NCBI GenBank assembly: GCA_964016885.1 | Contig: OZ024741.1 | Location: 368,280,001-368,344,000, forward strand | Direction: 5' to 3' | Length of the DNA stretch: 64,000 bases | Source of the DNA: Eledone cirrhosa | Taxonomy: Eukaryota | In this document: one piece after another, positions 35,566 through 63,979 of the stretch | Layout: every line of letters begins with the position of its first letter | How positions within the stretch are numbered: position 1 is the stretch's first letter | Made by a program: the position numbers and the translations under genes | Notes under the pieces: model-generated | What the model was told of the DNA's origin: nothing | Databases searched by the model: none | What the model saw: only the letters and a program-made list of their open reading frames with translations

Positions 35566-36852
35566 ACTAGGGCTTTAACACCCCAGTTGCCGATTTTGCA
35601 ATGGGTAACCCCTGCTTGCCAAGGAAGACGTAAGATCTTCTTTGTATTCTTTTATCGCATCCTTTATTTCCTTCCCCCCTCTCTCCTTTGTCCTTCTACC
35701 CCAGCTCTTCTCCTTTGTCGGCGTCTTTTCTCGCCCACCCGAGGCTGCCCTTTGGCCCCATGTAGCCTTAGTACCCCCACTCCCCCCTCCCCTAGTCTTT
35801 GATAGATTTGGCGGACTCCGCCCTTTATAGCAGTTGGCTTAGACCCCGGATACTTGCCCCCCTTTTCCGACCGCTCCCACTATTCTCTGTGCCCTCTTTA
35901 TTTCTTAGTGGCACTTATGCCCTATTTCTTCGTTTCAGTATTTCTTGCTTCGCTTTTCTTCTGGGCGGGGTGGATTCTGAACTTATTTCTCCGTATTCTA
36001 CCTTTATTTCGTACGAACTTTCATGTAGCTTGTTTTAGATCTTTTAGAGTTAGCATTAGTATATATTTTTCCCGGGACTCAGAATTATTATGTCGTACAA
36101 GTTCACTTTGCTGCACTGGGTCGTTGCTGGCCCGGGATGGAAACCTTTATTGTTTATTTCGTGGTAGTCTCTTTAGTATTTTGGCCCCTTTTGTTGACCA
36201 GTCACCGTATCATTTACGTACTTATACCTCTTAAAAGGGTCCTTGCTTAATTCGTCCCACCTAGTTCTTTTACTTATTTCCTTATTTATTTATTTATTTA
36301 TTTATTTACTTCTTTCTTTCTTTCTTTATTTTATTCTCGCCTAACAATAGCCTGACACCTAGGTCGTAGAATTTAATTTTTTCTTTACACTTTTTTGCTT
36401 TTCTTCACTCTCAGTATTTTTTCTTTCCTATTTTTACCCCCCATTGTTCTACCTACCGTTCCGACTTCCTCCCCCTCCCCCTCCCCTGTATCTTCTTTGA
36501 CCTCATGCCCAGCTGTAGCTGGCACTACCAACGCTTGATTGGGTCTACTCCACCCCCTCCCCTCTTTCTCCTACTGGCAGGTTTAGCCACCATCTCCCCT
36601 ACTAATTTGCAACCACAGAATTACTACTGATTTTTGACAATCACTTTGACCATATATGGAATTACCCCTTGAGAAGATCGGCTATTTAAATACCAGGATA
36701 AATGTTCATTTAGTCCAGAATTAGCCGTCGAAACGGCTTGAGCTCAGCTGTCGGGGTCTTACTGGTTCCTATTACCCACTCTACTACCTCAAGTATTGAG
36801 TACTTTGGTGCGTTATGGTCCACCTGGTTCCTTACCACATTTCCTTCGTTAT

Positions 36853-37297
<445 letters not shown>

Positions 37298-37463
37298 TAA
37301 CTGCTCTGTAAAACAACTGATGTTATTACATTGAGCTATTTATCTTACTGATAATAGGATAGTAATTAATGACTATCTTTCACTATTTAGGGTTTGTATA
37401 TATAATATATTACCATTAAAGGTTTTATTGCATACATAACCATAAATAGTACCCTTAATACTA
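37298..37463 (+). ncRNA. Stand-alone structured ~165-nt tail element (homolog of 41376-41540)
   Basis: Colinear with 41376-41540 (taactgctctgtaaa...cataaccataaatagta...taatacta); three hairpins. Confidence 0.6.
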
Positions 37464-37467
37464 TATG

Positions 37468-37540
<73 letters not shown>

Positions 37541-37611
37541 GAACTTTTTTTGTTTAATATAAGGAACTGTTTCATTGTTTTATTCATTATTTTTTTAATA
37601 TTTTATATATG

Positions 37612-37664
<53 letters not shown>

Positions 37665-37685
37665 GTATCTATATACATATATATG

Positions 37686-37740
<55 letters not shown>

Positions 37741-37749
37741 ATGTATATA

Positions 37750-39278
37750 TGTATTTTGTTAGAGATGCCTACTGGCTGGAGTAGGTTTTACTATATATTT
37801 AGGTAAGGCGGGTCTTCTCTGTTACTGAGTACCGCCAAAGGTCTCGGTCCAGTGACATTGTCTTGGAGAGGTGTAAGTGTGTGATGTCGGAGTTTATCAG
37901 CTCGTCCCAGGTTTTTCTAGGTCTGCCTATTCCGTGACTACCGTCTATCTTTATTGCCCTGCACTTTGTTATACAGCTATCGACTTTCATGCGCATCACG
38001 TGTCCATACCAACGTAGCCTTCTCTCGAGTAAACAACATCTGATCCCTCTTATCTCTAATTTTTTCCTTAGTTCGTTTATGCTTTGCCGTTCACGTATAT
38101 TACTGTTACACATCCAGCGGAGCATGCAAGCTTCGTTCCTCTCTAGTCTGCGTATATCCTCTGCACACAATGCCCAGGTCTCACTGCCATGCAGCATTGC
38201 TGTTCGTATGCAGGCATCGTACAACCTGCCTTTCATTTTTAGTGAGAACCCTTTAGCAGCTAATAGTGGTATAAGCTCTCTGAACTTTTTCCAACCAGTT
38301 CTGACTCTAGCTACAGTACTTTCAGAGCACCCTCCCCCACTGCTGATTTTATCGCCCAGGTAACGGAAGCTGTCCACTATTTCTATAGAACCCTCTGCGC
38401 AATTGAAAGAGCTAGTAGTTTGTGGGCACTTGCTGCTACTTATTGCACCAGAGCACCGGCCACATGTAAAATCTATGTTCTTAGTTAGCTTACCTGTGAT
38501 CCCACTACATCTTTTATGCACCCATACTTTGCATTTAGGACATAAAATGGAGTTTCTACCTACGCCTTTCCTACACACCGAGCACGACCATTTCCCAGAA
38601 GGGACCGCCGCCTTGTTTTCTTTCCTACAAACTAGTACTTTGGTCTTAGCCAGGTTAATTTTAAGTCCTTTTGACTCTAGGCCGTGCTTCCATGTTTGGA
38701 ATTTCTTCTCTAGCTCGGCCATTGATTCCGCTATGAGTGTCAGGTCGTCTGCGTATAGGAGTTCCCATGGGCAGCCTGTCTTGAACTCCTCTGTTATAGC
38801 CTGAAGGGCAATAATAAATAGTAGTGGACTGAGAACAGAGCCCTGATGGACGCCGACTTTTACGCTAAACTCTTCACTATATTCGTTGTTAATTCTAACC
38901 TTGCTGACTGTTTCTTTATACATGGCTTGTATAGCCCTCACAAGCCATTCGTCAACGCCTAGTTTTCTAAGAGCCCACCAGATAATGGAGCGGGGGACTC
39001 TGTCGAAGGCTTTCTCCAAGTCGACAAAAGCTAAGTAGAGGGGTTTACCTTTAGCTAGGTACTTCTCCTGTAGTTGTCGTACTATGAAAAGAGCGTCTGT
39101 GGTACTTTTGCCTGACACAAACCCGAACTGCATTTCATCTAGGTCAATTCTCTCTCTGATTAGTTGCGCTATTACTCTTTCCGTGACCTTCATGACCTGG
39201 TCGATTAATTTAATGCCTCTATAGTTACTCCTATCTAGGGCGTCTCCTTTACCCTTATAACAGTTAACGATGATGCTA
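37750..39278 (-). mobile_element. RTE LINE copy, truncated at both ends; RT ORF open 37799-39277
   Basis: Protein near-identical to 52805 and 61580 copies; lacks most of 3' UTR. Confidence 0.93.
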
Positions 39279-39304
39279 TATATATATATATGTATATATA
39301 TATG

Positions 39305-39401
<97 letters not shown>

Positions 39402-39496
39402 ATATGTATGTATATATGTATATATGTATATATATGTATATATGTATATGTATATATGTATATATGTATATGTATATATGTATATATTTATATATG

Positions 39497-39569
<73 letters not shown>

Positions 39570-39604
39570 ATATATATATATGTATATATATATATGTATA
39601 TATG

Positions 39605-39635
<31 letters not shown>

Positions 39636-39840
39636 GTATTTATATATATGTATATATATATATATGTATTTATATATATGTATATATATATATATGTATT
39701 TATATATATGTATATATGTATATATATATATGTATATATATATATGTATATATGTATATATATATGTATATATGTATATATATGTATATATGTATATATA
39801 TGTATATATGTATATATGTATATATGTAAATGTATATATG
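39279..39840. repeat. (TA)n tract, TG-type
   Basis: Direct. Confidence 0.97.
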
Positions 39841-39877
39841 TATGAAATATAAGAATCAAAGAACTGTTCAAAACATT

Positions 39878-39930
39878 ATTGTGCTTACAGCTGTTTCCTC
39901 CAAACCGAGGTTTGGATTCTTCGGAGCAAT
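39878..39930 (-). ncRNA. Minimal hammerhead ribozyme (U4C variant), left arm
   Basis: Reverse complement of 41286-41338. Confidence 0.75.
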
Positions 39931-41285
39931 TTATTAATGCATGGACAGTTATATGACCTCCTTTTCAGCCGAGAGACATACCAATACATATTCAAACATT
40001 GTGGGTCAACATTCATTACAGAATTTAGAGTGGCAGTACACACTTCGAGATTACATTTATATTAATAGGTACAATCAAAAATCAAAGATATAGGTTAAAG
40101 TACAACATGAAGATAAGTGGTTATATAGTGCAAATGTTATATGTGTGGCACGCATGTGCGTCTTGTTTATATAGTGTGGCAGAGAGATATGTGTGGTAGA
40201 GGCACTTAGGTAGGTAAATAAGAGTGTTAGGTTGGTAGATCTGGTGGCAAAGTCTTTATATGATTGATATAGTCTGTGTGTGGAGAAATATTATAAGCAT
40301 TAAAGATAGTGCAAGCATTAAAAGTGTTATAAGTATTGGAGATGCACAGCGCAGGGATGTCAAGTAATTCATGTACTTCGGCATTTTCATGGTCAAGGGA
40401 GTGTATATTTCGATTATATGCCTTTCACATAATCCACGACAATCCAGTTAGAGATCGTAGTCTGGTGTTCTTTAGTTCGATACAGGAGGTTGTTACGTTT
40501 CGAGAAACGCCATTGAATACCGGAAGTGTGTGTGGCTAAGGGGAGTTAATGCATGCGGGGAGGTAACTCTGGGGTTTCTATATCTAGCCATTAAAATGTG
40601 TCCCAATATAGACCCTAAATTCTATGGTGAGGTGCACCTTCCAAGAGAGACTTTTAAAGCATAAAGTGTACTAACTATAGAGTAGTTTAACTAAATTATG
40701 CTGAAGGTGATCATATTATTATTAAGGTGGATTAACCCATCATAAGGTGCTACAAATGGAAATTATAGATGATGAGCGAGGATTCTAAATTAATGATCTC
40801 TGTGGTTGTAGTCTGCTCATATGACCAGGCGCGGTGATTGCAGGATTGCTTCAGGACCCAATGATCTCTGGTAAGATCTGGGTCATCACTTGCTACATTG
40901 GATGTCGAAAGATAATCGTCCCCAGGCAGGCCAAAGGTCAATCCGCAGTCCTCGCGGATCTACCAACCTAACACTCTTATTTACCTACCTAAGTGCCTCT
41001 ACCACACATATCTCTCTGCCACACTATATAAACAAGACGCACATGCGTGCCACACATATAACATTTGCACTCTATAACCACTTATCTTCATGTTGTACTT
41101 AAACCTATATCTTTGATTTTTGATTGTACCTATTAATATAAATGTAATCTCGAAGTGTGTACTGCCACTCTAAATTCTGTAATGAATGTTGACCCACAAT
41201 GTTTGAATATGTATCAATGTTTGAATATGTATTGGTATGTCTCTCGGCTGAAAAGGAGGTCATATAACTGTCCATGCATTAATAA

Positions 41286-41338
41286 ATTGCTCCGAAGAAT
41301 CCAAACCTCGGTTTGGAGGAAACAGCTGTAAGCACAAT
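41286..41338 (+). ncRNA. Minimal hammerhead ribozyme (U4C variant), right arm
   Basis: tgct-CCGAAGA-a-tccaaacc(tc)ggtttgga-g-GAAA-cagctg-TA-agca; palindromic stem III as in dimeric PLE hammerheads. Confidence 0.78.
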
Positions 41339-41540
41339 AATGTTTTGAACAGTTCTTTGATTCTTATATTTCATATAACTGCTCTGTAAATCATCTGATG
41401 TTTTTACATTGAGCTACTTAACTTACTGGTAATAAGGTAGTAATACATTACTGCCTACCACTATTTAGGGTGTGTGTAAAATACTTACAACTGCTTAAGG
41501 TTTTGTGTTTACATAACCATAAATAGTATAACTAATACTA

Positions 41541-45940
<4,400 letters not shown>

Positions 45941-47029
45941 TAATAATAATAATATTGAAGACTAAAATCCAAAGAGGGCTCGATAAGGAAAATATATATC
46001 AAATATATAAGAACCGTAGAGCAAATATTTATTAAAATAACAGATTAAAGTTTAAGCAAAGAATCGCTGCTTTCACCCTTAACGGGATCTTCTGAAACTA
46101 ACAAAGTCAATCTGTAAACGCAGAACTGGATATTTCATAAAACGTTGCAACCGTAGGAAGACAGGAAGACGATACTTTGGTTCGTGGTAACATTCGCTGC
46201 CAAAGAACGGGAAAAAACGAATAATACGTCATTAATAGGAGCGGTGAAAAACAATTACGCGCAAAGACAGAACCACGTTTATGGTATAAAAGAGGTCGTA
46301 GACTAATGTTCTCTTAGGTGGTGCATAGAGACGTTCTCTGGCAATGAACGAAAAAACGAATATAATAAGTCATATGTGGAGCGTGGAGAACAATAGCACG
46401 CAAAGACAAAACCACGTAAATGGTATAGCAGAAGTCGTAGACTAAAATTCTAACTAGGAGACCAAATGAATCTCCGCTACAGAGTTAAGAACAAAGTAAA
46501 TAAATACAATACAGAAGTAATAGAAACAAATAAATACATACACGCAAACAGATACGTACATACACAAGCATATGCAAAACCTTACCATAGGTATACAAAA
46601 CCACGCACATATAAATGTGTGTGTGTGTGTGTATGCTTGTGTACAAATAAATAAATAATTATATAAACGTATATAAGTAAATAAATACGTATATAACAAG
46701 CGCACACACATACCTACATATAAATACATGAATGTTCGGAGACGTAAGTCAACTAAAACAAGAAGTACACATATACACACACCCACCATACGTACGAACC
46801 TGCATACTCACGCAGACGCAAAACTCCCGTATACACATAGCCAAACCCTAAATACCAGAATATGTAAAAATTATACGCCATAACAGTCAAATATACGTAC
46901 GAGAAGGTATACATACCTTCACAAAACATACGGGTAATATATACTTACCTATGCAAATAAGTAAAGGAATAAACAAAACATATACTTAGCTCCCACATCA
47001 AGACGTAAAATATCCACGTATAGATCGTG

Positions 47030-49128
47030 CTATCCGTTGGGGTATAACTTGGGGCTGTAATACAGGAAAGTTTTGTGCAATTTATGTTTACAAGCCGAAA
47101 TTGCCTCAGATGTTTTGTTTAAGATGTGGTCTGTGGCGTAGAGTATTTCCAGGGCCTCAGCGGCACAGAGGTCACATGGTCTTTTATTTCCGTTATACAA
47201 TCTAGCCCTAGCTAGGATCTCCCAGTGTAACTTATATTGGGTGTGGTTGTCTTTTAGACTCCAGATATAAGCTGAAAGTGACGTCATATTCCTTCTTAGA
47301 GGGTAACGAAAAGAATGGGTATGCATGTAAAGACGCTGCTTGAAACTATTGGCGGTTAACCCTATGTAGGCCCTACGGGACGTGGGTGTTACAACCTTAC
47401 ATTTGTAGACAATGTTACTAGAGAGGCATTTCCCGGATAGGGAGCAATCAGCCCGATTCCTACAATTACAGTTAGTACTAACTACAGGGTTGCACGTGTT
47501 CCTACGGCTAGGTAGTTTAGCTAAATTTGAAGCTGTGATGTTATGTGCAAGGTTAGGAGTCGTAGAGTAAGAAATTTTAATAGTATTTCTATTAAAGATT
47601 TTACTATATTTATGTGTAGGGGGAAAATGCTTCGTAATAAGGGAAAGAAAGATCTTAGCTAATGGTGTGGCCACCTCCATATTATATGGTGGGTTAAACC
47701 AACAAATGCGACGAGATCTATTTCTTCTAGGTCTATTTTCGTACTCTGTATATGCTACCTTATCGACAAATCCACTTCGAGCAAGAGCTTCATTGTAATA
47801 AGTGGAATGGTCGTTGAAAATGCGCTCGTTGGTGGAAAGACGGGAAAGCCTCAACGAAACGTTTCTTACCAGGTTCTTGGTTATGCTGGCAGGATGGTTG
47901 GAATGCTTACTTATGTAATTAAGCGTATCATTCGGCTTTCTATACGGGTAATACAACCCATTCAATAAATTGAGGGTAACGTCGAGGTAATTAACGACCG
48001 AGAGATTGGCCTCAACCTGTATAGAGAGGTTGAAGCCTTTAAAGAAGGCTGTGAGTTCTTTTCTGAACCTGTCGCAAGCGCGAGGTCCGCACTTAGTCAT
48101 GGTCAAAAGACCATCGTCACGGTACAAACCACCGCCTGCGTAGGGGAATTCGTCCTTGATAGAGAAAAGAAGGAAAAGGCCAATAAGATCAGTAACCTCC
48201 GCAGAGTCACTGGCGCCCATACTCACGTCGAATGGGGTACTATTGGATTTTTTAATCCAAATAGAGTCGTCGAAATTAATCACCCACTTTCGGGCATTAA
48301 GGATGACATCAACTTCAAAATCCTTAACCACTGTGAGTGTTTTAGCGAAATTTATAGCTCTAAGGAGATGATGTCGAATTGGATAAAACGGGAATGTTCC
48401 TTGTTACATATGCCGTTGAACCAATCAATCACCGCGAAAGAATTGTTCCACAGTGCGAGAGGGGCCAAACTTCTAATTTCAGGTATAATTCTATCAAGAA
48501 TCGTTTTACTAAGTCTACCTAAATCGGACTTCGTAGGGTTAATAAGCCGAATAGAGGGGCTGTTCGGAAAATTGGATTTGTGATCCTTCAGGGTAAAGTG
48601 GGGAGAGATAGGGTCCAGAGGTTCGGTCCGGTCCAGGATGTTGAGATCAGATGTGATTTTAAACCCAGCATCGTTGATTTCATTGATGACGCACCGATTA
48701 GTTTTACGGTAATCCTTAGTTACAGCATTATGTAGTAGTTGATGGTAAGTACTGCGCTCCACTTGATATAGGTTGCCAGTTTTGTCGGAATGGACGTGCA
48801 CGGCGTTAGAATCCTTAATAGAACGAATTCTATTCTTCAGGTTTTGCTGGAAGGAATTGCTCCTATTCCGAAATTTGATATTCCGAATGAGTTCCAAGAC
48901 ATCATTTTCGAAGGGTAGCAATGCTGGGTTCCACGGAGAGTTATTATAGGTTTCAAATCCAAATTTATCCTGTTTGTTGTCTGCTTTTCGCAGATTATCG
49001 AAATAAAAGGCACGCCAACGCAACCTTTTAATGAACGCGTCTGTTTTCTGTATCAGGAGTTTTAGGTATGTTTTCCTGCTTGGTACGGGTATGTTCTTTG
49101 TAGAAATATTCAGATGTTGTTTCTGCAT
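47030..49128 (-). pseudogene. Naiad-B full-length ORF broken by a small frameshifting deletion near 48365
   Basis: N-terminus STKNIP.P..Y..LI.K...FIKRLRWRA; QFDI lacks the following YYxSI segment; GLYRDD, WFNPP, YIGLT, CDLC. Confidence 0.92.
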
Positions 49129-50254
49129 GATGAATATAAGTCAGTAGAGTGCTCAACGGAAGGAGCCAAATAGTAATAATAATAAAATTGAAGACTAAAA
49201 TCCAAAAAGGGCTCGATAAGGAAAATATATATCAAATATATAAGAACCGTAGAGCAAATATTTATTAAAATAACAGATTAAAGTTTAAGCAAGGAATCAC
49301 TGCTTTCACCATTAACGGGATCTTCTGAAACTAACAAAGTCAATCTGTAAACGCAGAACTGGATATTTCAAAAAACGTTGCAACCGGAGGAAGACAGGAA
49401 GACGATACTTTGGTTCGTGGTAACGTTCGCTGGCAAAGAACGGGAAAAAACGAATAATACGTCATTAATAGGAGCGGTGAAAAACAATTACGCGCAAAGA
49501 CAGAACCACGTTTATGGTATAAAAGAGGTCGTAGACTAATGTTCTCTTAGGTGGTGCATAGAGACGTTCTCTGGCAATGAACGAAAAAACGAAGATAATA
49601 AGTCATATGTGGAGCGTGGAGAACAATAGCACGCAAAGAAAAAACCACGTAAATGGTATAGCAGAAGTCGTAGACTAAAATTCTAACTAGGAGACCAAAT
49701 GAATCCGCTACAGAGTTAAGAACAAAGTAAATAAATACAATACAGAAGTAATAGAAACAAATAAATACATACACGCAAACAGATACGTACATACACAAGC
49801 ATACGCAAAACCTTACCATAGGTATACAAAACCACGCACATATAAATATGTGTGTGTATGCTTGTGTACAAATAAATAAATAATTATATAAACGTTTATA
49901 AGTAAATAAATACGTATATAACAAGCGCACACGCATACCTACATATAAATACACGAATGTTCGGAGACGTAAGTCAACTAAAACAAGAAGTACACATATA
50001 CACACACCCACCATACGTACGAACCTGCATACTCACGCAGACGCAAAACTCCCGTATACGCATAGCCAAACCCTAAATACCAGAATATGTAAAAATTATA
50101 CGCCATAACAGTCAAATATACGTGCGAGAAGGTATACATACCTTCACAAAACATACGGGTAATATATACTTACCTATGCAAATAAGTAAAGGAATAAACA
50201 AAACATATACTTAGCTCCCACATCAAGACGTAAAATATCCACGTATAGATCGTG

Positions 50255-51484
50255 CTATCCGTTAGGGTATAACGTGGGGCTGTAATACAGGAAAGTTTTG
50301 TGCAATTTATGTTTACAAGCCGAAATTGCCTCAGATGTTTTGTTTAAGATGTGGTCTGTGGCGTAGAGTATTTCCAGGGCCTCAGCGGCGCAGAGGTCAC
50401 ATGGTCTTTTATTTCCGTTATACGATCTAGCCCTAGCTAGGATCTCCCAGTGTAACTTATATTGGGTGTGGTTGTCTTTTAGACTCCAGATATAAGCTGA
50501 AAGTGACGTCATATTCCTTCTTAGAGGGTAACGAAAAGAATGGGTATGCATGTAAATCGCTGCTAGAAACTATTGGCGGTTAACCCTATGTAAGCCCTAC
50601 GGGACGTGGGTGTTAAAACCTTACATTTGTAGACAATGTTACTAGAGAGGCATTTCCCGGATAGGGGGCAATCAGCCCGATTCCTACAATTACAGTTAGT
50701 ACTAACTACAGGGTTGCACGTGTTCCTACGGCTAGGTAGTTTAGCTAAATTTGAAGCTGTGATGTTATGTGCAAGGTTAGGAGTCGTAGAGTAAGAAATT
50801 TTAATAGTATTTCTATTAAAGATTTTACTATATTTATGTGTAGGGGGAAAATGCTTCGTAATAAGGGAAAGAAAGATCTTAGCTAATGGTGTGGCCACCT
50901 CCATATTATATGGTGGGTTAAACCAACAAATGCGACGAGATCTATTTCTTCTAGGTCTATTTTCGTACTCTGTATATGCTACCTTATCGACAAATCCACT
51001 TCGAGCAAGAGCTTCATTGTAATAAGTGGAATGGTCGTTGAAAATGCGCTCGTTGGTGGAAAGACGGGAAAGCCTCAACGAAACGTTTCTTACCAGGTTC
51101 TTGGTTATGCTGGCAGGATGGTTGGAATGCTTACTTATGCAATTAAGCGTATCATTCGGCTTTCTATACGGATAATACAACCCATTCAATAAATTGAGGA
51201 TAACGTCGAGGTAATTAACGACCGAGAGATTGGCCTCAACCTGTATAGAGAGGTTGAAGCCTTTAAAGAAGGCTGTGAGTTCTTTTCTGAACCTGTCGCA
51301 AGCGCGAGGTCCGCACTTAGTCATGGTCAAAAGACCATCGTCACGGTACAAACCACTGCCCGCGTTGGGGAATTCGTCCTTGATAGAGAAAAGAAGGAAA
51401 AGGCCAATAAGATCAGTAACCTCTGCAGAGTCACTGGCGCCCATACTCACGTCGAATGGCGTACTATTGGATTTTTTAATCCAA
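50255..51484 (-). pseudogene. Naiad-B upstream 5'-truncated copy with nonsense mutation
   Basis: TANSF* at 50563 where the downstream copy reads SFK. Confidence 0.9.
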
Positions 51485-51778
51485 CGGGAAATGCCTCTCT
51501 AGTAACATTGTCTACAAATGTAAGGTTTTAACACCCACGTCCCGTAGGGCTTACATAGGGTTAACCGCCAATAGTTTCTAGCAGCGATTTACATGCATAC
51601 CCATTCTTTTCGTTACCCTCTAAGAAGGAATATGACGTCACTTTCAGCTTATATCTGGAGTCTAAAAGACAACCACACCCAATATAAGTTACACTGGGAG
51701 ATCCTAGCTAGGGCTAGATCGTATAACGGAAATAAAAGACCATGTGACCTCTGCGCCGCTGAGGCCCTGGAAATACTC

Positions 51779-52421: not shown

Positions 52422-54668
52422 TCATCATCATCAACGTTTAACGTCCGTGTTCCACGCTTGCATGGGTTTGGACGGGGGTAGTCCCACTTGAGGCAAGAGT
52501 GATTGTCTTGCTCGCATAGGACTGTCTGGCAGGTTTTCTACAGTTGGATGCCCTTCCTAACACCAACCACATTTACAGTGTGGGTCTGGGAGGTTTTTAC
52601 CGTGTTGCCTACACGGCCACATTACAGCGTGGACTGTGTGTTTTTTTGTCGTGACACCTACACGATCTCATTTGTTTCGGCCTCGATGGCGCGGCACCAA
52701 CATAACTTTACATAGAACGGGGTGGTGTGGATCGGGTGGGGGTGGTGGGACGGGGTGTATTTTGTTAGAGATGCCTACTGGCTGGAGTAGGTTTTACTAT
52801 ATATTTAGGTAAGGCGGGTCTTCTCTGTTACTGAGTACCGCCAAAGGTCTCGGTCCAGTGACATTGTCTTGGAGAGGTGTAAGTGTGTGATGTCGGAGTT
52901 TATCAGCTCGTCCCAGGTTTTTCTAGGTCTGCCTATTCCGTGACTACCGTCTATCTTTATTGCCCTGCACTTTATTATACAGCTATCGACTTTCATGCGC
53001 ATCACGTGTCCATACCAACGTAGCCTTCTCTCGAGTAAACAACATCTGATCCCTCTTATCTCTAATTTATTCCTTAGTTCGTTTATGCTTTGCCGTTCAC
53101 GTATATTACTGTTACACATCCAGCGGAGCATGCAAGCTTCGTTCCTCTCTAGTCTGCGTATATCCTCTGCACACAATGCCCAGGTCTCACTGCCATGCAG
53201 CATTGCTGTTCGTATGCAGGCATCGTACAACCTGCCTTTCATTTTTAGTGAGAACCCTTTAGCAGCTAATAGTGGTATAAGCTCTCTGAACTTTTTCCAA
53301 CCAGTTCTGACTCTAGCTACAGTACTTTCAGAGCACCCTCCCCCACTGCTGATTTTATCGCCCAGGTAACGGAAGCTGTCCACTATTTCTATAGAACCCT
53401 CTGCGCAATTGAAAGAGCTAGTAGTTTGTGGGCACTTGCTGCTACTTATTGCACCAGAGCACCGGCCACATGTAAAATCTATGTTCTTAGTTAGCCTACC
53501 TGTGATCCCACTACATCTTTTATGCACCCATACTTTGCATTTAGGACATAAAATGGAGTTTCTACCTACGCCTTTCCTACACACCGAGCACGACCATTTC
53601 CCAGAAGGGACCGCCGCCTTGTTTTCTTTCCTACAAACTAGTACTTTGGTCTTAGCCAGGTTAATTTTAAGTCCTTTTGACTCTAGGCCGTGCTTCCATG
53701 TTTGGAATTTCTTCTCTAGCTCGGCCATTGATTCCGCTATGAGTGTCAGGTCGTCTGCGTATAGGAGTTCCCATGGGCAGCCTGTCTTGAACTCCTCTGT
53801 TATGGCCTGAAGGGCAATAATAAATAGTAGTGGACTGAGAACAGAGCCCTGATGGACGCCGACTTTTACGCTAAACTCTTCACTATATTCGTTGTTAATT
53901 CTAACCTTGCTGACTGTTTCTTTATACATGGCTTGTATAGCCCTCACAAGCCATTCGTCAACGCCTAGTTTTCTAAGAGCCCACCAGATAATGGAGCGGG
54001 GGACTCTGTCGAAGGCTTTCTCCAAGTCGACAAAAGCTAAGTAGAGGGGTTTACCTTTAGCTAGGTACTTCTCTTGTAGTTGTCGTACTATGAAAAGAGC
54101 GTCTGTGGTACTTTTGCCTGACACAAACCCGAACTGCATTTCATCTAGGTCAATTCTCTCTCTGATTAGTTGCGCTATTACTCTTTCCGTGACCTTCATG
54201 ACCTGGTCGATTAATTTAATGCCTCTATAGTTACTCCTATCTAGGGCGTCTCCTTTACCCTTATAACAGTTAACGATGATGCTGCTATGCCAGTCCTTCG
54301 GAACAACCCCGTTCTGTACGACTTGGTTAACTATGCGGGTGACCATGGTGTGTCCCACCGTGCCAGATGCCTTCAGCATCTCAGCAACTATTTCCGAAGG
54401 CCCAGCCGCCTTACCAGTCTTCATATCCTTGATTGCCTTACTTATTATACTCCCCTCGACTAACACTGCTGGTCCCTCTATTGGGTCGATATGGGGGAGA
54501 CTGCCTTTCTCCCAATTATTCTCCTCATTTAGAAGCCTTTCATAGTGACACTTCCAAGCTACCTTCTTATCAGCGTCGGTGATGGCAAGTGTGCCATCGT
54601 CGTTTAGTACACACTTCTCCCCGACAATATCACGGTTGTACACACTTCTCCCCGACAATATCACGGTT
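52422..54668 (-). mobile_element. Young 5'-truncated RTE LINE; RT ORF open 52805-54637
   Basis: RT motifs, full 3' UTR, (GAT)n tail. Confidence 0.94.
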
Positions 54669-55647
<979 letters not shown>

Positions 55648-58373
55648 AAATTTAGGTATAATACAATGTAGTGATAATATATCGTTACGTTAGATGAACA
55701 GCGTACGTGCAGGTTTGCTCAACGAGTATAAATTATATTCCGGAGAAATATAGAAAGGATGAATATAAAATGAAAGTGCTTTTGTTAAAAAAGGAATTTA
55801 TTAGGTATTGACATATGTTTCTGTAATAGACCGAATACCTATGTATCGCTGCTTGCGTAATCATATAATGATAGCAAGTATTCGAAAGCAAATGTATAAT
55901 CAGTTGTCACTTCTTCAGAGATTTTGGATAAACTGGATAAAATCGATTTTGGATAAACTGGATAAAATCGATACTAACCCTAATATTAGACTTATATGCC
56001 CCTCTAAATCTGATATAGGTAAAATTAGCAAATATATACTAGACAGAATTATCCCCCAAGTTAAGGTTAAAGTAGAGATTAAACTATGGGGTAACACTCA
56101 TGAAGCAATAAGATGGTTTAACAACATTACTGATAAGAAAAAATCAAATTTATTCAGTTTGATATTGATGAATATTATTCCTCAATTTCACCTGATACTC
56201 TACATGAAGCTCTTTCGTTCGCTAAGGATAATTCCGACCTTACGGATGCTGAAATTAAAATTATTATGGAAGCGAGAAAAACTATAGTTAAATTCGATGA
56301 TAGCTCCTGGGTTCGCAAAGATAGACCTTCTAATTTTGATATCACTATGGGTTCTAATGATTCGGCGGAAGTAACAGATCTTGTGGGAATTTATATCACC
56401 CACAGATTACAAGGAAAATTCAAGGATCTCCACGGTGGAATCTACCGTGACGATGCGCTCCTATTAGTTAAGCATATGAATAACCAGAATTTAGAAAGGA
56501 TGCGTAAAAATATCAGAAAACTTTTTAAAGAACTAGGATTAAATATTACATTTGAATATAACCTCAAAGAGGTCAATTTCCTTGATGTTACTTTCAATCT
56601 CAATACAGATACGATTAAACCGTTCCACAAACTAAATGAGAACCTTAAATATGTAAATACGAGTTCTAACCATCCACTCTCTATAATTAAATCCATCCCT
56701 AGAAATGTTTCTCTTAGAATCTCCCGCCTATCGTCCAACCAACAAACCTTCAAAGAACATGCCGAGTATTATGATGATGCACTTAGGAAAGCCGGTCACC
56801 TAGATAATATAGAATATATAGTCAATGAACACCAAAACACCCAAAATAAATCACATAGGAGTAGAAATAGCACAGAATCACCACCATACATACACTACCG
56901 CAATAGACACAATAATAGTCGCACACCACCAAACAGAAGGCGATGTAAGGAGTATATCTGGTACAACCCGGTCTATAACAAATCTATTAAAACCAATCTA
57001 CCCTCAAAATTCTTTCGATTAGTTAGAAAACACTTTCCAACATCACATAAATATAATAAAATCTTAAACCCTAACACTATTCAACTTTCATATTCAACCG
57101 CCCCTAATATTGAACAACATATAAAAAAGCTTAACGCAAAACGGTTGTATAAACGCCTTCCAACACATAACAATACACGTAAAACATTAGCTATAACATC
57201 ACAAAACAACAAACAACATCCTGTCCTACATAAGCAACCTCATCAACCCATCCATGGCAATACAACAACGCAAAATTGTAATTGCAACTGTATCCAACCA
57301 GGAATGTGTCCGTTGAACAATCAGTGTCTTGAACGCAACATCGTATACAAATGTACTATCGAATCAGATAGACAGAAGTGGTACTATGTGGGATCTACAG
57401 CCACCTCCTTCAAATCACGCCTTTATAGACATCGTTATTCGATAAAACATGAAAACCAGCGTTATGTAACAACACTCGCAGACAAGGCTTGGCAGCTGCG
57501 TGAAAATAACCAACAATTTCACCTAAAATGGGATATAATAGCGACTGCCCCCCCCCCCCCCCCCCCCCCCCATATTCCAATGGACAGGAATTTTGTAAAT
57601 TATGTAATGTAGAATTATTTTGTATTATGAAATCCAAAAACATTTTATTAAATAACAGAATAGAGCGATCGTTATACTGTAACCATCGCTTAAAATCTAC
57701 ATTTTCATATTATTATAAATACTACCAGGATTGAACGCCTGTCTCTATCCCCGTTTGATTGTCAAAATAGATATGAACATTCTTTATTAGTCTTAATTCT
57801 ATCAACTCTTCTATTATTTACCTTTTAATACAAACTGCTATAGATAAAATGAGATTTCTGATTTCTTGATTCAATTCCCTAGTGCATATACCAGCTGGCT
57901 ACTAGCATTGATGTTATTTAGTAGCAATCGAAATCTCCCCCTTCCCCAATTGACACTTTATAATTAATACTACTGCACCAAATGACCAGCCCTGTCCACT
58001 GTCCAGTTGGTCAAGTAGAGATTAAAATTGGCACTCCCAAAATTCTTATTTAGATTTACTCATGGTATTCTCATTAAAAACCCATTATATACTTGTTTAG
58101 CAGTAAATTATTTTACCATCTGTCATATTCTATCCCCTCTGTTCCTTCCTCTTTTACTAATATAAATACTTCAATTTTTCTGATTTTATCCAGTTTATCC
58201 AAAATCTCTGAAGAAGTGACAACTGATTATACATTTGCTTTCGAATATTTGCTAACATTATATGATTACGCAAGCAGCGATACATAGGTATTCGGTCTAT
58301 TACAGAAACATATGTCAATACCTAATAAATTCCTTTTTTAACAAAAGCACTTTCATTTTATATTCATCCTTTC

Positions 58374-58450: not shown

Positions 58451-59655
58451 ATTCATAGCTGAATCAATGGCCGAGCTAGAGAAGAAATTCCAAACATGGA
58501 AGCACGGCCTAGAATCAAAAGGCCTTAAAATTAACCTGGCTAAGACTAAAGTTCTAGTTTGTAAGAAAGAAAATAAGGCGGCGGTACCCTCCGGGAAGTG
58601 GCCATGCGCAGAGTGTAGGAAAGGTGTAGGTAGAAATTCCATTTTGTGTCCCAAATGCAAAGTTTAGGTGCATAAAAGATGTAGTGGGATCACAGGTAAG
58701 CTAACTAAGAACATAGATTTTACATGTGGCCGGTGTTCTGGGGCAATAAGTAGCAGCAAGTGCCCACAAAATACTAGCTCTTTCAACTGCGCAGAGGGTT
58801 CTATAGAAATAGTGGACAGCTTCCGTTACCTGGGTGACAAAATCAGCAGTGGGGGAGGGTGCTCTGAAAGTACAGTAGCTAGAGTCAGAACTGGGTGGAA
58901 AAAGTTCAGAGAGGTTATACCACTATTAGCCGCTAAAGGGTTCTCCCTAAAAATGAAAGGCAGGCTGTACGATGCCTGCATACGAACAGCAATGTTGCAT
59001 GGCAGTGAGACCTGGGCATTGTGTGCAGAGGATATACGCAGACTAGAGAGAAACGAAGCTTGCATGCTCCGCTGGATGTGTAATAGTAATATACGTGAAC
59101 GACAAAGCATAAACGAACTAAGGAAAAAATTAGAAATAAGAGGGATCAGATGTTGTTAACTAGAGAGAAGGCTACGTTGGTATGGTCACGTGATGCGCAT
59201 GAAGGACGATAGCTGTATAACAAAGTGCAGGGCAATAAAGATAGACGGTAGCCACGGAATAGGCAGACCCAGAAAAACCTGGGACGAGCTGATAAACTCC
59301 GACCTCACACACTTACACCTCACCAAGGCAATGTCACTGGACCGAGACCTTTGGCGGTACTCAGTAATAGAGAAGACCCACCTTACCTAGATACAAAGTA
59401 AAACCTACTACAGTCAGTAGGCATCTCTAACAAAATACACCCCTGTCCCACCCCATCCACACCGCCCCCTTCTATGTAAAGTTATGTTGGTGCCACACTA
59501 TCCAGGCCGAAACAAATGAGATCGTGTAGGTGTCACGACAAAAAAACACACAGTCCACGCTGTAATGTGGCCGTGTAGGCAACACGGTAAAAACCTCCCA
59601 GACCCACACTGTACATGTGGTTGGTGTTAGGAAGGGCATCCAACTGTAGAAAACC
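58451..59655 (+). pseudogene. RTE LINE fragment with nonsense mutations, lacking terminal tail
   Basis: ORF pieces 58419-58667, 58668-59159, 59190-59390; UTR stops at ctgtagaaaacc. Confidence 0.92.
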
Positions 59656-59666
59656 CCTCGGGGGGG

Positions 59667-61080
59667 GGGGTGTATTTTGTTACAGATGCCTACTGGCTGT
59701 AGTAGGTTTTACTATGTATTTAGGTAAGGCGGGTCTTCTCTGTTACTGAGTACCCGCCAAAGGTCTCGGTCAAGTGACATTGTCTTGGAGAAATGTAAGT
59801 GTGTGAGGTCGGAGTTTATCAGCTCATCCCAGGTTTTTCTAGGTCTGCCTATTCCGTGGCTACCGTCTATCTTTATTGCCCTGCACTTTGTTATACAGCT
59901 ATCGACTTTCATGCGCATCACGTGTCCATACCAACGTAGCCTTCTCTCGAGTAAACAACATCTGATCCCTCTTATTTCTAATTTTTTCCTTAGTTCGTTT
60001 ATGCTTTGCCGTTCACGTATATTACTGTTACACATCCAGCGGAGCATGCAAGCTTCGTTCCTCTCTAGTCTGCGTATATCCTCTGCACACAATGCTCAGG
60101 TCTCACTGCCATGGAACATTGCTGTTCGTATGCAGGCATCGTACAACCTGCCTTTCATTTTTAGGGAGAACCCTTTAGCAGCTAATAGTGGTATAAGCTC
60201 TCTGAACTTTTTCCAACTAGTTCTGACTCTAGCTACTGTACTTTCAGAGCACCCTCCCCCACTGCTGATTTTATCACCCAGGTAACGGAAACTGTCCACT
60301 ATTTCTATAGAACCCTCTGCGCAATTGAAAGAGCTAGTATTTTCTGGGCACTTGCTGCTACTTATTGCACCAGAGCACCGGCCACATGTAAAATCTATGT
60401 TCTTAATTAGCTTATCTGTGATCCCACTACATCTTTTATGCACCCATACTTTGCATTTAGGACATAAAATGGAGTTTCTACCTACGCCTTTCCTACACAC
60501 CGAGCACGACCATTTCCCAGAAGGGATCGCCGCCTTATTTTCTTTCCTACAAACTAGAACTTTAGTCTTAGCCAGGTTAATTTTAAGGCCTTTTGATTCT
60601 AGGCCGTGCTTCCATGTTTGGAATTTCTTCTCTAGCTCGGCCATTGATTCCGCTATGAGTGTCAGGTCGTCTGCGTATAGGAGTTCCCATGGGCAGCCGG
60701 TCTTGAACTCCTCTATTATAGCCTGAAGGGCAATAATAAATAGTAGGGGGCTGAGAACAGAGCCCTGATGGACGCCAACTATTACGCTAAACTCTTCACT
60801 ATATTCGTTGTTAATTCTAACCTTGCTGACTGTTTCTTTATACATGGCTTGTATAGCTCTCACAAGCCATTCGTCAACGCCTAGTTTTCTAAGAGCCCAC
60901 CAGATAATGGAGCGGGGGACTCTGTCGAAGGCTTTCTCCAAGTCGACAAAAGCTAAGTAGAGGGGTTTACCTTTAGCTAGGTACTTCTCCTGTAGTTGTC
61001 GTACAATGAAAAGAGCGTCTGTGGTACTTTTGCCTGACACAAACCCGAACTGCATTTCATCTAGGTCAATTCTCTCTCTG
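59667..61080 (-). pseudogene. RTE LINE fragment, truncated at both ends, stop at 60096
   Basis: ORFs 60096-61080 and 59712-60092. Confidence 0.92.
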
Positions 61081-61134
61081 TATATATATATGTATATATA
61101 TATATATGTATATATATATATGTATATACATATG

Positions 61135-61172
<38 letters not shown>

Positions 61173-61180
61173 CATATACA

Positions 61181-63979
61181 TATCATCATCATCATCATCA
61201 TCATCATCAGCGTTTAACGTCCGTGTTCCACGCTTGCATGGGTTTGGACGGGGGTAGTCCCACTTGAGGCAAGAGTGATTGTCTTGCTCGCATAGGACTG
61301 TCTGGCAGGTTTTCTACAGTTGGATGCCCTTCCTAACACCAACCACATTTACAGTGTGGGTCTGGGAGGTTTTTACCGTGTTGCCTACACGGCCACATTA
61401 CAGCGTGGACTGTGTGTTTTTTTGTCGTGACACCTACACGATCTCATTTGTTTCAGCCTCGATGGCGCGGCACCAACATAACTTTACATAGAACGGGGTG
61501 GTGTGGATCGGGTGGGGGTGGTGGGACGGGGTGTATTTGTTAGAGATGCCTACTGGCTGGAGTAGGTTTTACTATATATTTAGGTAAGGCGGGTCTTCTC
61601 TGTTACTGAGTACCGCCAAAGGTCTCGGTCCAGTGACATTGTCTTGGAGAGGTGTAAGTGTGTGATGTCGGAGTTTATCAGCTCGTCCCAGGTTTTTCTA
61701 GGTCTGCCTATTCCGTGACTACCGTCTATCTTTATTGCCCTGCACTTTGTTATACAGCTATCGACTTTCATGCGCATCACGTGTCCATACCAACGTAGCC
61801 TTCTCTCGAGTAAACAACATCTGATCCCTCTTATCTCTAATTTATTCCTTAGTTCGTTTATGCTTTGCCGTTCACGTATATTACTGTTACACATCCAGCG
61901 GAGCATGCAAGCTTCGTTCCTCTCTAGTCTGCGTATATCCTCTGCACACAATGCCCAGGTCTCACTGCCATGCAGCATTGCTGTTCGTATGCAGGCATCG
62001 TACAACCTGCCTTTCATTTTTAGTGAGAACCCTTTAGCAGCTAATAGTGGTATAAGCTCTCTGAACTTTTTCCAACCAGTTCTGACTCTAGCTACAGTAC
62101 TTTCAGAGCACCCTCCCCCACTGCTGATTTTATCGCCCAGGTAACGGAAGCTGTCCACTATTTCTATAGAACCCTCTGCGCAATTGAAAGAGCTAGTAGT
62201 TTGTGGGCACTTGCTGCTACTTATTGCACCAGAGCACCGGCCACATGTAAAATCTATGTTCTTAGTTAGCCTACCTGTGATCCCACTACATCTTTTATGC
62301 ACCCATACTTTGCATTTAGGACATAAAATGGAGTTTCTACCTACGCCTTTCCTACACACCGAGCACGACCATTTCCCAGAAGGGACCGCCGCCTTGTTTT
62401 CTTTCCTACAAACTAGTACTTTGGTCTTAGCCAGGTTAATTTTAAGTCCTTTTGACTCTAGGCCGTGCTTCCATGTTTGGAATTTCTTCTCTAGCTCGGC
62501 CATTGATTCCGCTATGAGTGTCAGGTCGTCTGCGTATAGGAGTTCCCATGGGCAGCCTGTCTTGAACTCCTCTGTTATGGCCTGAAGGGCAATAATAAAT
62601 AGTAGTGGACTGAGAACAGAGCCCTGATGGACGCCGACTTTTACGCTAAACTCTTCACTATATTCGTTGTTAATTCTAACCTTGCTGACTGTTTCTTTAT
62701 ACATGGCTTGTATAGCCCTCACAAGCCATTCGTCAACGCCTAGTTTTCTAAGAGCCCACCAGATAATGGAGCGGGGGACTCTGTCGAAGGCTTTCTCCAA
62801 GTCGACAAAAGCTAAGTAGAGGGGTTTACCTTTAGCTAGGTACTTCTCTTGTAGTTGTCGTACTATGAAAAGAGCGTCTGTGGTACTTTTGCCTGACACA
62901 AACCCGAACTGCATTTCATCTAGGTCAATTCTCTCTCTGATTAGTTGCGCTATTACTCTTTCCGTGACCTTCATGACCTGGTCGATTAATTTAATGCCTC
63001 TATAGTTACTCCTATCTAGGGCGTCTCCTTTACCCTTATAACAGTTAACGATGATGCTGCTATGCCAGTCCTTCGGAACAACCCCGTTTTGTACGACTTG
63101 GTTAACTATGCGGGTGACCATGGTGTGTCCCACCGTGCCAGATGCCTTCAGCATCTCAGCAACTATTTCCGAAGGCCCAGCCGCCTTACCAGTCTTCATA
63201 TCCTTGATTGCCTTACTTATTATACTCCCCTCGACTAACACTGCTGGTCCCTCTATTGGGTCGATATGGGGGAGACTGCCTTTCTCCCAATTATTCTCCT
63301 CATTTAGAAGCCTTTCATAGTGACACTTCCAAGCTACCTTCTTATCAGCGTCGGTGATGGCAAGTGTGCCATCGTCGTTTAGTACACACTTCTCCCCGAC
63401 AATATCACGGTTTTCCTTGACGCATTGCCTAGCAATCCTGAACACCTCACGTTTTTGGTCATCGCGTTGTAGAACATGCTTGAACTTTCTTTCCTCAGCT
63501 TCCCTTCTTGCTAAGTACACTTGTCTCCTAGCTTCCCTCCTGGCCACTTGATAGTCCTCTCTACTTCCCCCATCCCGCCATACTTTCCAAGCCTGCTTTT
63601 TGGCCTTAATTGACCCCTCCACCTTACTGTTCCACCACCATGTTACTCTCCTCCTGCCTACAGGCCTGCTCCAGCCACAGACCTCGTCTGTCGCCAACAG
63701 CAGGTTTGCTTTCAGAAATTCCCACTCTCCCTCTATATTGTCCGACTCTAAATGTTCTTCCTTACTGTCGAAAGCATCAAGTAATATGCTTTGAAATTTA
63801 TTCCTGGCTGTGGGGTCCTTTAACTTCCATATTTTCCTCCTGAGGATAGTCCTCTTCTGTTGTCGAGTACGTCTCGTCCTGACTATGAGGTCGCTAATTA
63901 TCAGTCTATGTTGGGAGGTGCATTCTTCATGGGGGAGGGATTTAGTGTTAACAACAGACACTCTGTCACGTCTTCTGGT
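61181..63979 (-). mobile_element. Young RTE LINE, longest copy, 5'-truncated within the endonuclease
   Basis: (GAT)n tail, 3' UTR, open ORF, TA tract after 63979. Confidence 0.94.
61580..63961 (-). CDS. RTE ORF (AP-endonuclease C-terminus, RT, PHD-like finger), 793 aa open
   Basis: SQHRLI (APE SDH-like motif), WWWN, NYRGIKL, DLEKAFD, YADD, CSVC..CPKC..HKRC..CGRC. Confidence 0.94.
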   Translation of the reverse strand: MSVVNTKSLPHEECTSQHRLIISDLIVRTRRTRQQKRTILRRKIWKLKDPTARNKFQSILLDAFDSKEEHLESDNIEGEWEFLKANLLLATDEVCGWSRPVGRRRVTWWWNSKVEGSIKAKKQAWKVWRDGGSREDYQVARREARRQVYLARREAEERKFKHVLQRDDQKREVFRIARQCVKENRDIVGEKCVLNDDGTLAITDADKKVAWKCHYERLLNEENNWEKGSLPHIDPIEGPAVLVEGSIISKAIKDMKTGKAAGPSEIVAEMLKASGTVGHTMVTRIVNQVVQNGVVPKDWHSSIIVNCYKGKGDALDRSNYRGIKLIDQVMKVTERVIAQLIRERIDLDEMQFGFVSGKSTTDALFIVRQLQEKYLAKGKPLYLAFVDLEKAFDRVPRSIIWWALRKLGVDEWLVRAIQAMYKETVSKVRINNEYSEEFSVKVGVHQGSVLSPLLFIIALQAITEEFKTGCPWELLYADDLTLIAESMAELEKKFQTWKHGLESKGLKINLAKTKVLVCRKENKAAVPSGKWSCSVCRKGVGRNSILCPKCKVWVHKRCSGITGRLTKNIDFTCGRCSGAISSSKCPQTTSSFNCAEGSIEIVDSFRYLGDKISSGGGCSESTVARVRTGWKKFRELIPLLAAKGFSLKMKGRLYDACIRTAMLHGSETWALCAEDIRRLERNEACMLRWMCNSNIRERQSINELRNKLEIRGIRCCLLERRLRWYGHVMRMKVDSCITKCRAIKIDGSHGIGRPRKTWDELINSDITHLHLSKTMSLDRDLWRYSVTEKTRLT

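Follow-up and report, generated by a model that had tools for sequence, protein, structure and literature searches.

The 64,000 nt of Eledone cirrhosa DNA analysed here (GCA_964016885.1, contig OZ024741.1, positions 368,280,001 to 368,344,000; hereafter the window) contain two diverged copies of a sequence of about 165 nt, one standing alone and one following a hammerhead-like motif, raising the question of what this module is and why it occurs in both settings. A first-pass annotation had read it as a novel structured RNA, possibly for RT binding or priming, that can be retroposed by itself as a minimal non-autonomous element. On sequence grounds, we identify the module instead as the optional 3' tail of two sister autonomous Hydra-clade PLE families (families A and B) that insert in (TA)n, so that the supposed novelty is a known type of PLE tail, here long, belonging to ORF-bearing elements.

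Two structured copies in a stack of TA-targeting elements

The two copies (37298-37463 and 41376-41540) are colinear, share common ends and are about 79% identical. Both are structured, each folding better than its shuffles (z -3.65 for copy 1 and -2.82 for copy 2), and of the three helices proposed, H1 (GCTC-TGTAA / TTACA-TT-GAGC), H2 and the base of H3 are all present, although only H1 is widely conserved. The features in question are as follows.

37298 to 37461, plus strand: solo tail of PLE family A, from site 1 to site 2, amid TA tracts (from sequence matches)
37303 to 37336, plus strand: hairpin 1 (H1) of family A, with GCTC stem, upper stem, TT bulge and GAGC (from the fold; a clade-wide motif)
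37357 to 37378, plus strand: H2, in families A and B only, with one double-changed pair (from the fold and tail alignment)
37382 to 37450, plus strand: H3, a long stem in families A and B only, conserved at the base and variable in its upper part (from the fold and alignment)
39841 to 40956, minus strand: inverted arm of a family B insertion, with 3' UTR and hammerhead, stopping at site 1, no tail
40957 to 41538, plus strand: direct arm belonging to that family B insertion (39841-41538), 5'-truncated, tail included, stopping at site 2
41289 to 41333, plus strand: a minimal hammerhead-like motif of type I with CCGAAGA as its core and a palindromic stem III (read from the sequence)
41376 to 41538, plus strand: tail of PLE family B, from site 1 to site 2 (from the junction at locus L098; 5' UTR in tandem elements)
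41381 to 41414, plus strand: hairpin 1 of family B (from the fold)
41435 to 41456 and 41460 to 41527: H2 and the base of H3 in copy 2 (from the fold)
36770 to 36849, plus strand: 80-nt tail of family C, a third Hydra-type family
36778 to 36801: hairpin 1 of family C, its first pair A-U, not G-C
49145 to 49263, minus strand: tandem junction of family D, the fourth family, with both hairpins (49205-49263 and 49145-49174) before the start codon
Near 45938: end of the main copy of family D, past hairpin 1 (45972-46030)

Copy 1 is indeed solitary between TA tracts, its first base lying exactly at the internal TA site, and differs at one position from a family A tail embedded in a longer element. 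Copy 2 is likewise the tail of a hammerhead element as first described, with the hammerhead-like motif 42 nt upstream; the family B insertion that it closes is a head-to-head pair of truncated ends and contains no ORF.

The window belongs to a 3.0-Gb genome, and the surroundings of both copies are a stack of TA-targeting mobile elements. In the family C insertion (31888-36849), an inverted arm stops at site 1 and the direct arm consists of part of the ORF and the 80-nt tail. Family D forms a partial tandem (45938-51778); its 3' UTR contains a 139-bp repeat, and the two hairpins lie at the junction near 49173. In a fifth Hydra-type family, E (55753-58373), inverted arms stop at one common point; no tail or hairpin of family E was seen within the window. 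Pieces at 37754-39276, 52422-54637, 58453-63412, 22330-24277 and 17145-18629 are presumably from a LINE-type RT element, RTE-like by its motifs; they range from near-identical to diverged and lie in TA tracts too, some with inverted arms. Broken pieces on the minus strand at 7439-9071, 9663-11531 and 2228-4160 we take to represent a different type of PLE, a pol of the LTR type and one more LINE RT.

The module belongs to two Hydra-clade PLE families

Genome-wide, at least 40 sequences match each copy at 98-100% identity, and a pattern for the tail end has 4,089 matches, so the module is not limited to the two copies in the window. Among the loci fetched for copy 2, 30/30 extend upstream into a common body; for copy 1, 25/30 do so, four begin exactly at its TA and one begins a few bases before. 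In a first sample, one locus continued beyond the module into an ORF. The tail, a second hairpin and the ORF were found in succession at 41 junction-pattern matches in family A and at loci L098-L101 in family B, in units of 4,697 and 4,199 bp, respectively. Long stretches of these loci run through the module into the PLE ORF; the module therefore constitutes the 5' UTR of tandem copies and an optional 3' tail of inserted ones. The autonomous RT ORF that the first-pass annotation had suggested looking for is thus linked to the module in both families. SECIS elements and the ends of DNA transposons or Helitrons were set aside, as the module runs on from the upstream hammerhead to the downstream PLE ORF.

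The family B ORF (locus L098) is a single ORF of 819 aa, with an RT and, at its C terminus, a GIY-YIG EN. It contains YRDD at 354, VIY at 697 and YVG at 712, the Y and G being invariant across 100 relatives; RWR at 38, in an alignment column with K 70 and R 27; and DKT, not DKG, at 123. The CxCX5C linker (C678-N-C680-x5-C686) and the C776-xx-C779 and C804-x-H806 motifs near the end of the EN are all 99-100% conserved, and an internal CCHH is absent, judged by eye from a list of Cys and His residues. Sequence searches of Pfam and PDB with this ORF returned nothing significant, and the assignment to the Hydra clade is by motifs and architecture: the ORF, RWK/DKT, linker, CxxC/CxH, a hammerhead motif in the pLTR and insertion in (TA)n. 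The clade's size limit (<3 kb, which is general, not strict) is exceeded by families A and B because their 3' UTRs are long. As expected of a PLE tail, the module is an optional extension at one end, equal to the sequence between pLTR and ORF.

The hammerhead-like motif (41289-41333) scores below the Rfam gathering score and does not fold as a monomer; its architecture matches that described for PLE hammerheads in PMC4209133. In the A/B group its core reads CCGAAGA instead of CUGANGA and is conserved from one subfamily to another. For the module itself, Rfam gave no match at gathering score within the window, and in six junction loci it gave only sub-threshold matches, all in one locus (L062) and away from the tail. 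The order along the element RNA is hammerhead, TA site 1, hairpin 1, spacer (containing H2 and H3 in families A and B), TA site 2, hairpin 2 and start codon.

A twin hairpin is conserved across the clade

The H1 hairpin, a GCTC stem with a 2-nt bulge before GAGC, has two copies in the stretch from the hammerhead to the start codon. In families A and B its short form recurs just past the 3' end of the module as hairpin 2, about 20-40 nt ahead of the start codon, and both hairpins were also found in families C and D (window and genome).

We identified relatives in a metagenome scan, which is marine-biased and yielded at least 78 loci; 55 of these 78 matched near the ORF start, 46 had N-terminal anchors and, with one duplicate removed, 45 were used. 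The strict pattern GCTC...T[TCA]GAGC had 62 matches in the 45 distinct upstream regions, against a background of 0.01 for each shuffled region and two matches across 86,912 nt of ORF. The outer four GCTC/GAGC pairs were used for selection, and their invariance is therefore circular; the independent evidence lies in the inner pairs, the spacing and the TA offset. The fifth pair is C-G in 48 hairpins and U-A in 14, and pairing with the 2-nt bulge holds for 61/62, other registers giving 0-16. The covariation score of the inner pairs is 0.299, against 0.111 when shuffled, and none of 500 shuffles reached it. The hairpin alignment (A4) comprised 57 of the 62 hairpins and four from the window, five with long loops or short flanks being left out, and a model built on these hairpins recovers the motif in loci outside its training set. 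Among the hammerhead-bearing UTRs of relatives (n=21), 17 contain two hairpins, three contain one and one contains none, with the twins spaced 58-83 nt apart. Hairpin 2 alone is no stabler than shuffles (z +0.37 to -0.81), and changes in the upper stem (G-U 11 versus A-C 8) do not fix the strand on which the hairpin acts.

H2 and H3, by comparison, are confined to the A/B group; neither families C and D nor the relatives have them. We aligned 41 tails (39 representatives of 133 full tails, and the two window copies), in which 98.1% of cells in H1-H3 are paired, mostly via G-U changes (96-99% per helix), and one-sided changes mostly retain the pair on the sense strand. The A-U to G-C change noted in H2 is real (A-U 18, G-U 9, G-C 9, unpaired 5). 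Compensatory change across the whole module, also claimed, was not borne out: a double change occurs in one of 27 pairs, shuffles give 0.9, and 355/500 shuffles reach the observed value. The proposed double change in the upper extension of H3 (tgtat/ataca versus tgtaa/ttaca) falls in an indel-rich AT region, and this extension is not retained in the consensus fold. H2 and H3 are thus local to families A and B and covary weakly. A role in RT binding or priming remains probable for this structured RNA, with the signal residing in the H1 hairpin and not in a three-helix unit of 165 nt.

We additionally observed a further family, G (L103, L123 and L127), with one long hairpin of the same type, about 115 nt, and a single end site in the loci seen. 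It is possibly a single-site, tailless variant.

Element ends lie at hairpin-linked TA sites, one site per end

TA steps ahead of the hairpin peak at -6 (28/60), and a TA lies within -5 to -10 of the hairpin in 52/56 cases, compared with 22/56 for a control window. Copies terminate at these hairpin-linked TA sites, joined to (TA)n, in families A, B, C, D and G and in two relatives (L230 and L244). Among the first 100 listed matches to site 1 of family A, 52 stop and 48 read on, and single ends of family C split 52:48 likewise. Among 11 read-through copies of family A, all eight that could be resolved end in TA at site 2. Of the first 100 of the 4,089 tail-end matches, none continues into the ORF, each passing at site 2 into either TA or a short reiteration.

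In head-to-head pairs, the two sites are divided between the two ends. Of the family A pairs, 22/24 have one end at site 1 and a second that continues through the tail (p ~2e-5; 21/23 without one possible duplicate), and family C has one site per end in 33/35 pairs (p ~2e-8). An arm resembles its partner within the insertion more closely than it resembles the arms of other insertions in 14/15 tests in family B and 5/7 in family A, covering pairs that share at least 100 nt and have enough comparators (15 of 19 pairs in B and 7 of 12 in A). This likeness fits derivation from one RNA, and equally from two RNAs of one source locus, or gene conversion.

The site-1 pattern of family C has 14,737 matches genome-wide, and most of the pairs listed are tiny and head-to-head, 65-117 bp apart. 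At site-1 ends (among them those of L020 and L100), family A often adds (CT)n and family B repeats the last 7-9 bases before the TA run, which suggests slippage during priming.

Solo tails are by-products of site 1

Genome-wide, a strict pattern identified 92 solo tails against 4,089 tail ends, a share of about 2% that is rough, as the two patterns differ in reach. We found 28 solo tails to be intermixed with 105 embedded tails of several subfamilies, without forming a lineage of their own, and 8/28 have 0-1 differences from an embedded tail. At a control TA-rich site within the tail there were seven matches, two of them true junctions; the matched-subfamily estimate for site 1 is about 34 solos (92 x 11/30), against the two at the control. 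Since they are both intermixed with embedded tails and enriched over the control site, the solos are a favoured by-product at site 1 and not a family. The first-pass view of copy 1 as a minimal non-autonomous element is not supported: as judged from their sequences, solo tails look like independent, dead by-products, because they lack hairpin 2 and each is nearest to the embedded tails of a different subfamily.

Proposed initiation at the hairpins and alternative readings

We propose that the module is the tail between two alternative ends and that the hairpin after each probably sets the start of reverse transcription at a TA 5-10 bases upstream. It is somewhat less certain, with the chances close to even, that the duplicated hairpin serves to load two RTs on one transcript, so that the two ends of a double-strand cut would each have their own start site. 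Under this model the GIY-YIG domain would cut both strands within a TA tract, two RT molecules would occupy the two hairpins of one RNA, and each would prime from one DNA end, aided by TA pairing. Joining of the two truncated cDNAs would then produce an inverted repeat with the tail on one side only. Where the site-2 cDNA stopped or was joined at site 1 and the site-1 cDNA was missing, a solo tail like copy 1 would result, which is likely to be dead. A likely role of H2 and H3, in families A and B, is to fold the long spacer, which would keep the two hairpins near each other.

Given the internal starts of the Poseidon PLE of Anolis (Frangieh et al. 2024, PMC11167929) and the end-pairing counts obtained here, this two-RT model is the simplest. 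According to that paper's account, the RT starts internally at two sites bounding the tail, RNA 3' of the start sites is required, both DNA strands are cut and extended, and a dimer is predicted; by analogy, RT binding, priming and a dimer may be expected of the elements studied here. Fold-back of a single cDNA was rejected: of the two arms in the window, the one without a tail measures 1,116 nt and the one with a tail only 582 nt, and each contains sequence missing from the other.

An alternative, which we consider unlikely, is that the hairpins act on DNA, the GIY-YIG nuclease recognising them in cDNA or a circular intermediate and cutting at the upstream TA, so that ends and tails reflect nuclease resolution. 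The tail was ascribed to EN-mediated resolution by Craig et al. 2021 (PMC8557442), and the Drosophila Penelope EN needs the tail, as stated by Frangieh et al. (PMC11167929); the nuclease must in any case prefer TA, because the targets are (TA)n, and the G-U counts leave the hairpin strand unfixed. Poseidon's two ends, however, are RT start sites in vitro (PMC11167929), the slipped reiterations often seen before the TA run at site-1 ends are expected of priming slippage, and the mostly sense-strand retention of pairs in H1-H3 suits a fold of the sense RNA.

Slightly less probable again is that the hairpins, within the 5' UTR, are bound by protein in assembling the RNP or controlling translation, with ends falling nearby merely via pairing of TA with (TA)n. 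The closeness of hairpin 2 to the start codon and the TA at both sites, able to pair with the target, would accord with such a role. It would leave the one-site-per-end rule unexplained, however, and among the first 100 of the 4,089 matches no 3' end lies at another TA-rich spot of the tail, while the distance from TA to hairpin is fixed across families with spacings of 58-165 nt. Finally, selection of the whole 165-nt, three-helix RNA as one module, also copied alone as a minimal element, is very improbable: the recurrence of solos starting exactly at site 1, their excess over the control site and the high pairing of each helix agree with it, whereas the scatter of the 28 solos among several subfamilies largely refutes it, the solos lack hairpin 2, a hammerhead and any known promoter, and families C and D and the relatives lack H2 and H3.

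Comparison with known systems

Initiation of two RTs at marked sites, as proposed here, resembles LINE-1 twin priming in that both target ends prime one RNA, giving an inversion. In LINE-1, annealing of the second primer takes place at an internal site set by chance, and the two arms have no overlap. Here, by contrast, the second site has a fixed, marked position, and the same region is present in both arms.

With Poseidon, our proposal has in common a tail between two starts, a need for 3' RNA, AT-rich DNA cut and extended on both strands, and a dimer, which for Poseidon is a prediction. The Poseidon sites are described in PMC11167929 as adjacent and within a stem-loop that is AC-rich, inside the ORF, with no target homology and no strand difference in vitro. 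The sites identified here, by contrast, are 58-165 nt apart in the UTR, each with a TA and its own copy of the hairpin, and within an insertion the site used at one end differs from that used at the other.

Families A and B share with the Hydra clade, as characterised by Craig et al. (PMC8557442), the RWK/RWR, DKT, CxCX5C linker and CxxC and CxH motifs around the end of the EN, the pLTR hammerhead, (TA)n insertion and a partial tandem and inverted structure. They differ from that description in size (4.2 and 4.7 kb, versus <3 kb) and in the tail (about 165 nt, versus 30-40 nt). According to the same authors, the PLE tail is often at only one end. In consensus sequences of the supplement to PMC8557442, hammerhead, hairpin 1 and spacer form the end of Hydra-2_Amil, and both hairpins stand at the start of Hydra-1_Ajap; the words 'hairpin' and 'stem-loop' are absent from that supplement.

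Non-LTR retrozymes and other non-autonomous PLE derivatives (bioRxiv 10.64898/2026.07.22.740005; MRC1, PMC8557442) are, like the solo tails, short, ORF-less sequences derived from the pLTR. In those accounts they keep a hammerhead or form tandem arrays and spread as families (10.64898/2026.07.22.740005; PMC8557442); the solo tail, unlike them, lacks a hammerhead, occurs in no array and does not constitute a separate family.

The clade, the hammerhead (PMC4209133), the tail, two start sites and non-autonomous PLE derivatives (10.64898/2026.07.22.740005) are thus already represented in the published accounts cited here. We could find no published description of the twin hairpin or of the one-site-per-end rule in a search of literature other than older Penelope papers, Repbase notes and bioRxiv supplements. 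Inverted repeats with a one-sided tail were flagged in the text of Craig et al. (PMC8557442) as a question needing a mechanism.

The twin 30-nt motif, its fixed TA offset and the one-site-per-end rule give exact mutations for the existing in vitro assay. The RTs of PLEs are the sister group of telomerase, and an RNA element that sets the template start would be of wider interest through this kinship, with possible use in RT-based insertion tools. If our reading is true, programmed twin priming would explain the inverted pseudo-LTRs, one-sided tails and solo tails of PLEs, and internal initiation by a telomerase-related RT would have a portable 30-nt signal in the hairpin.
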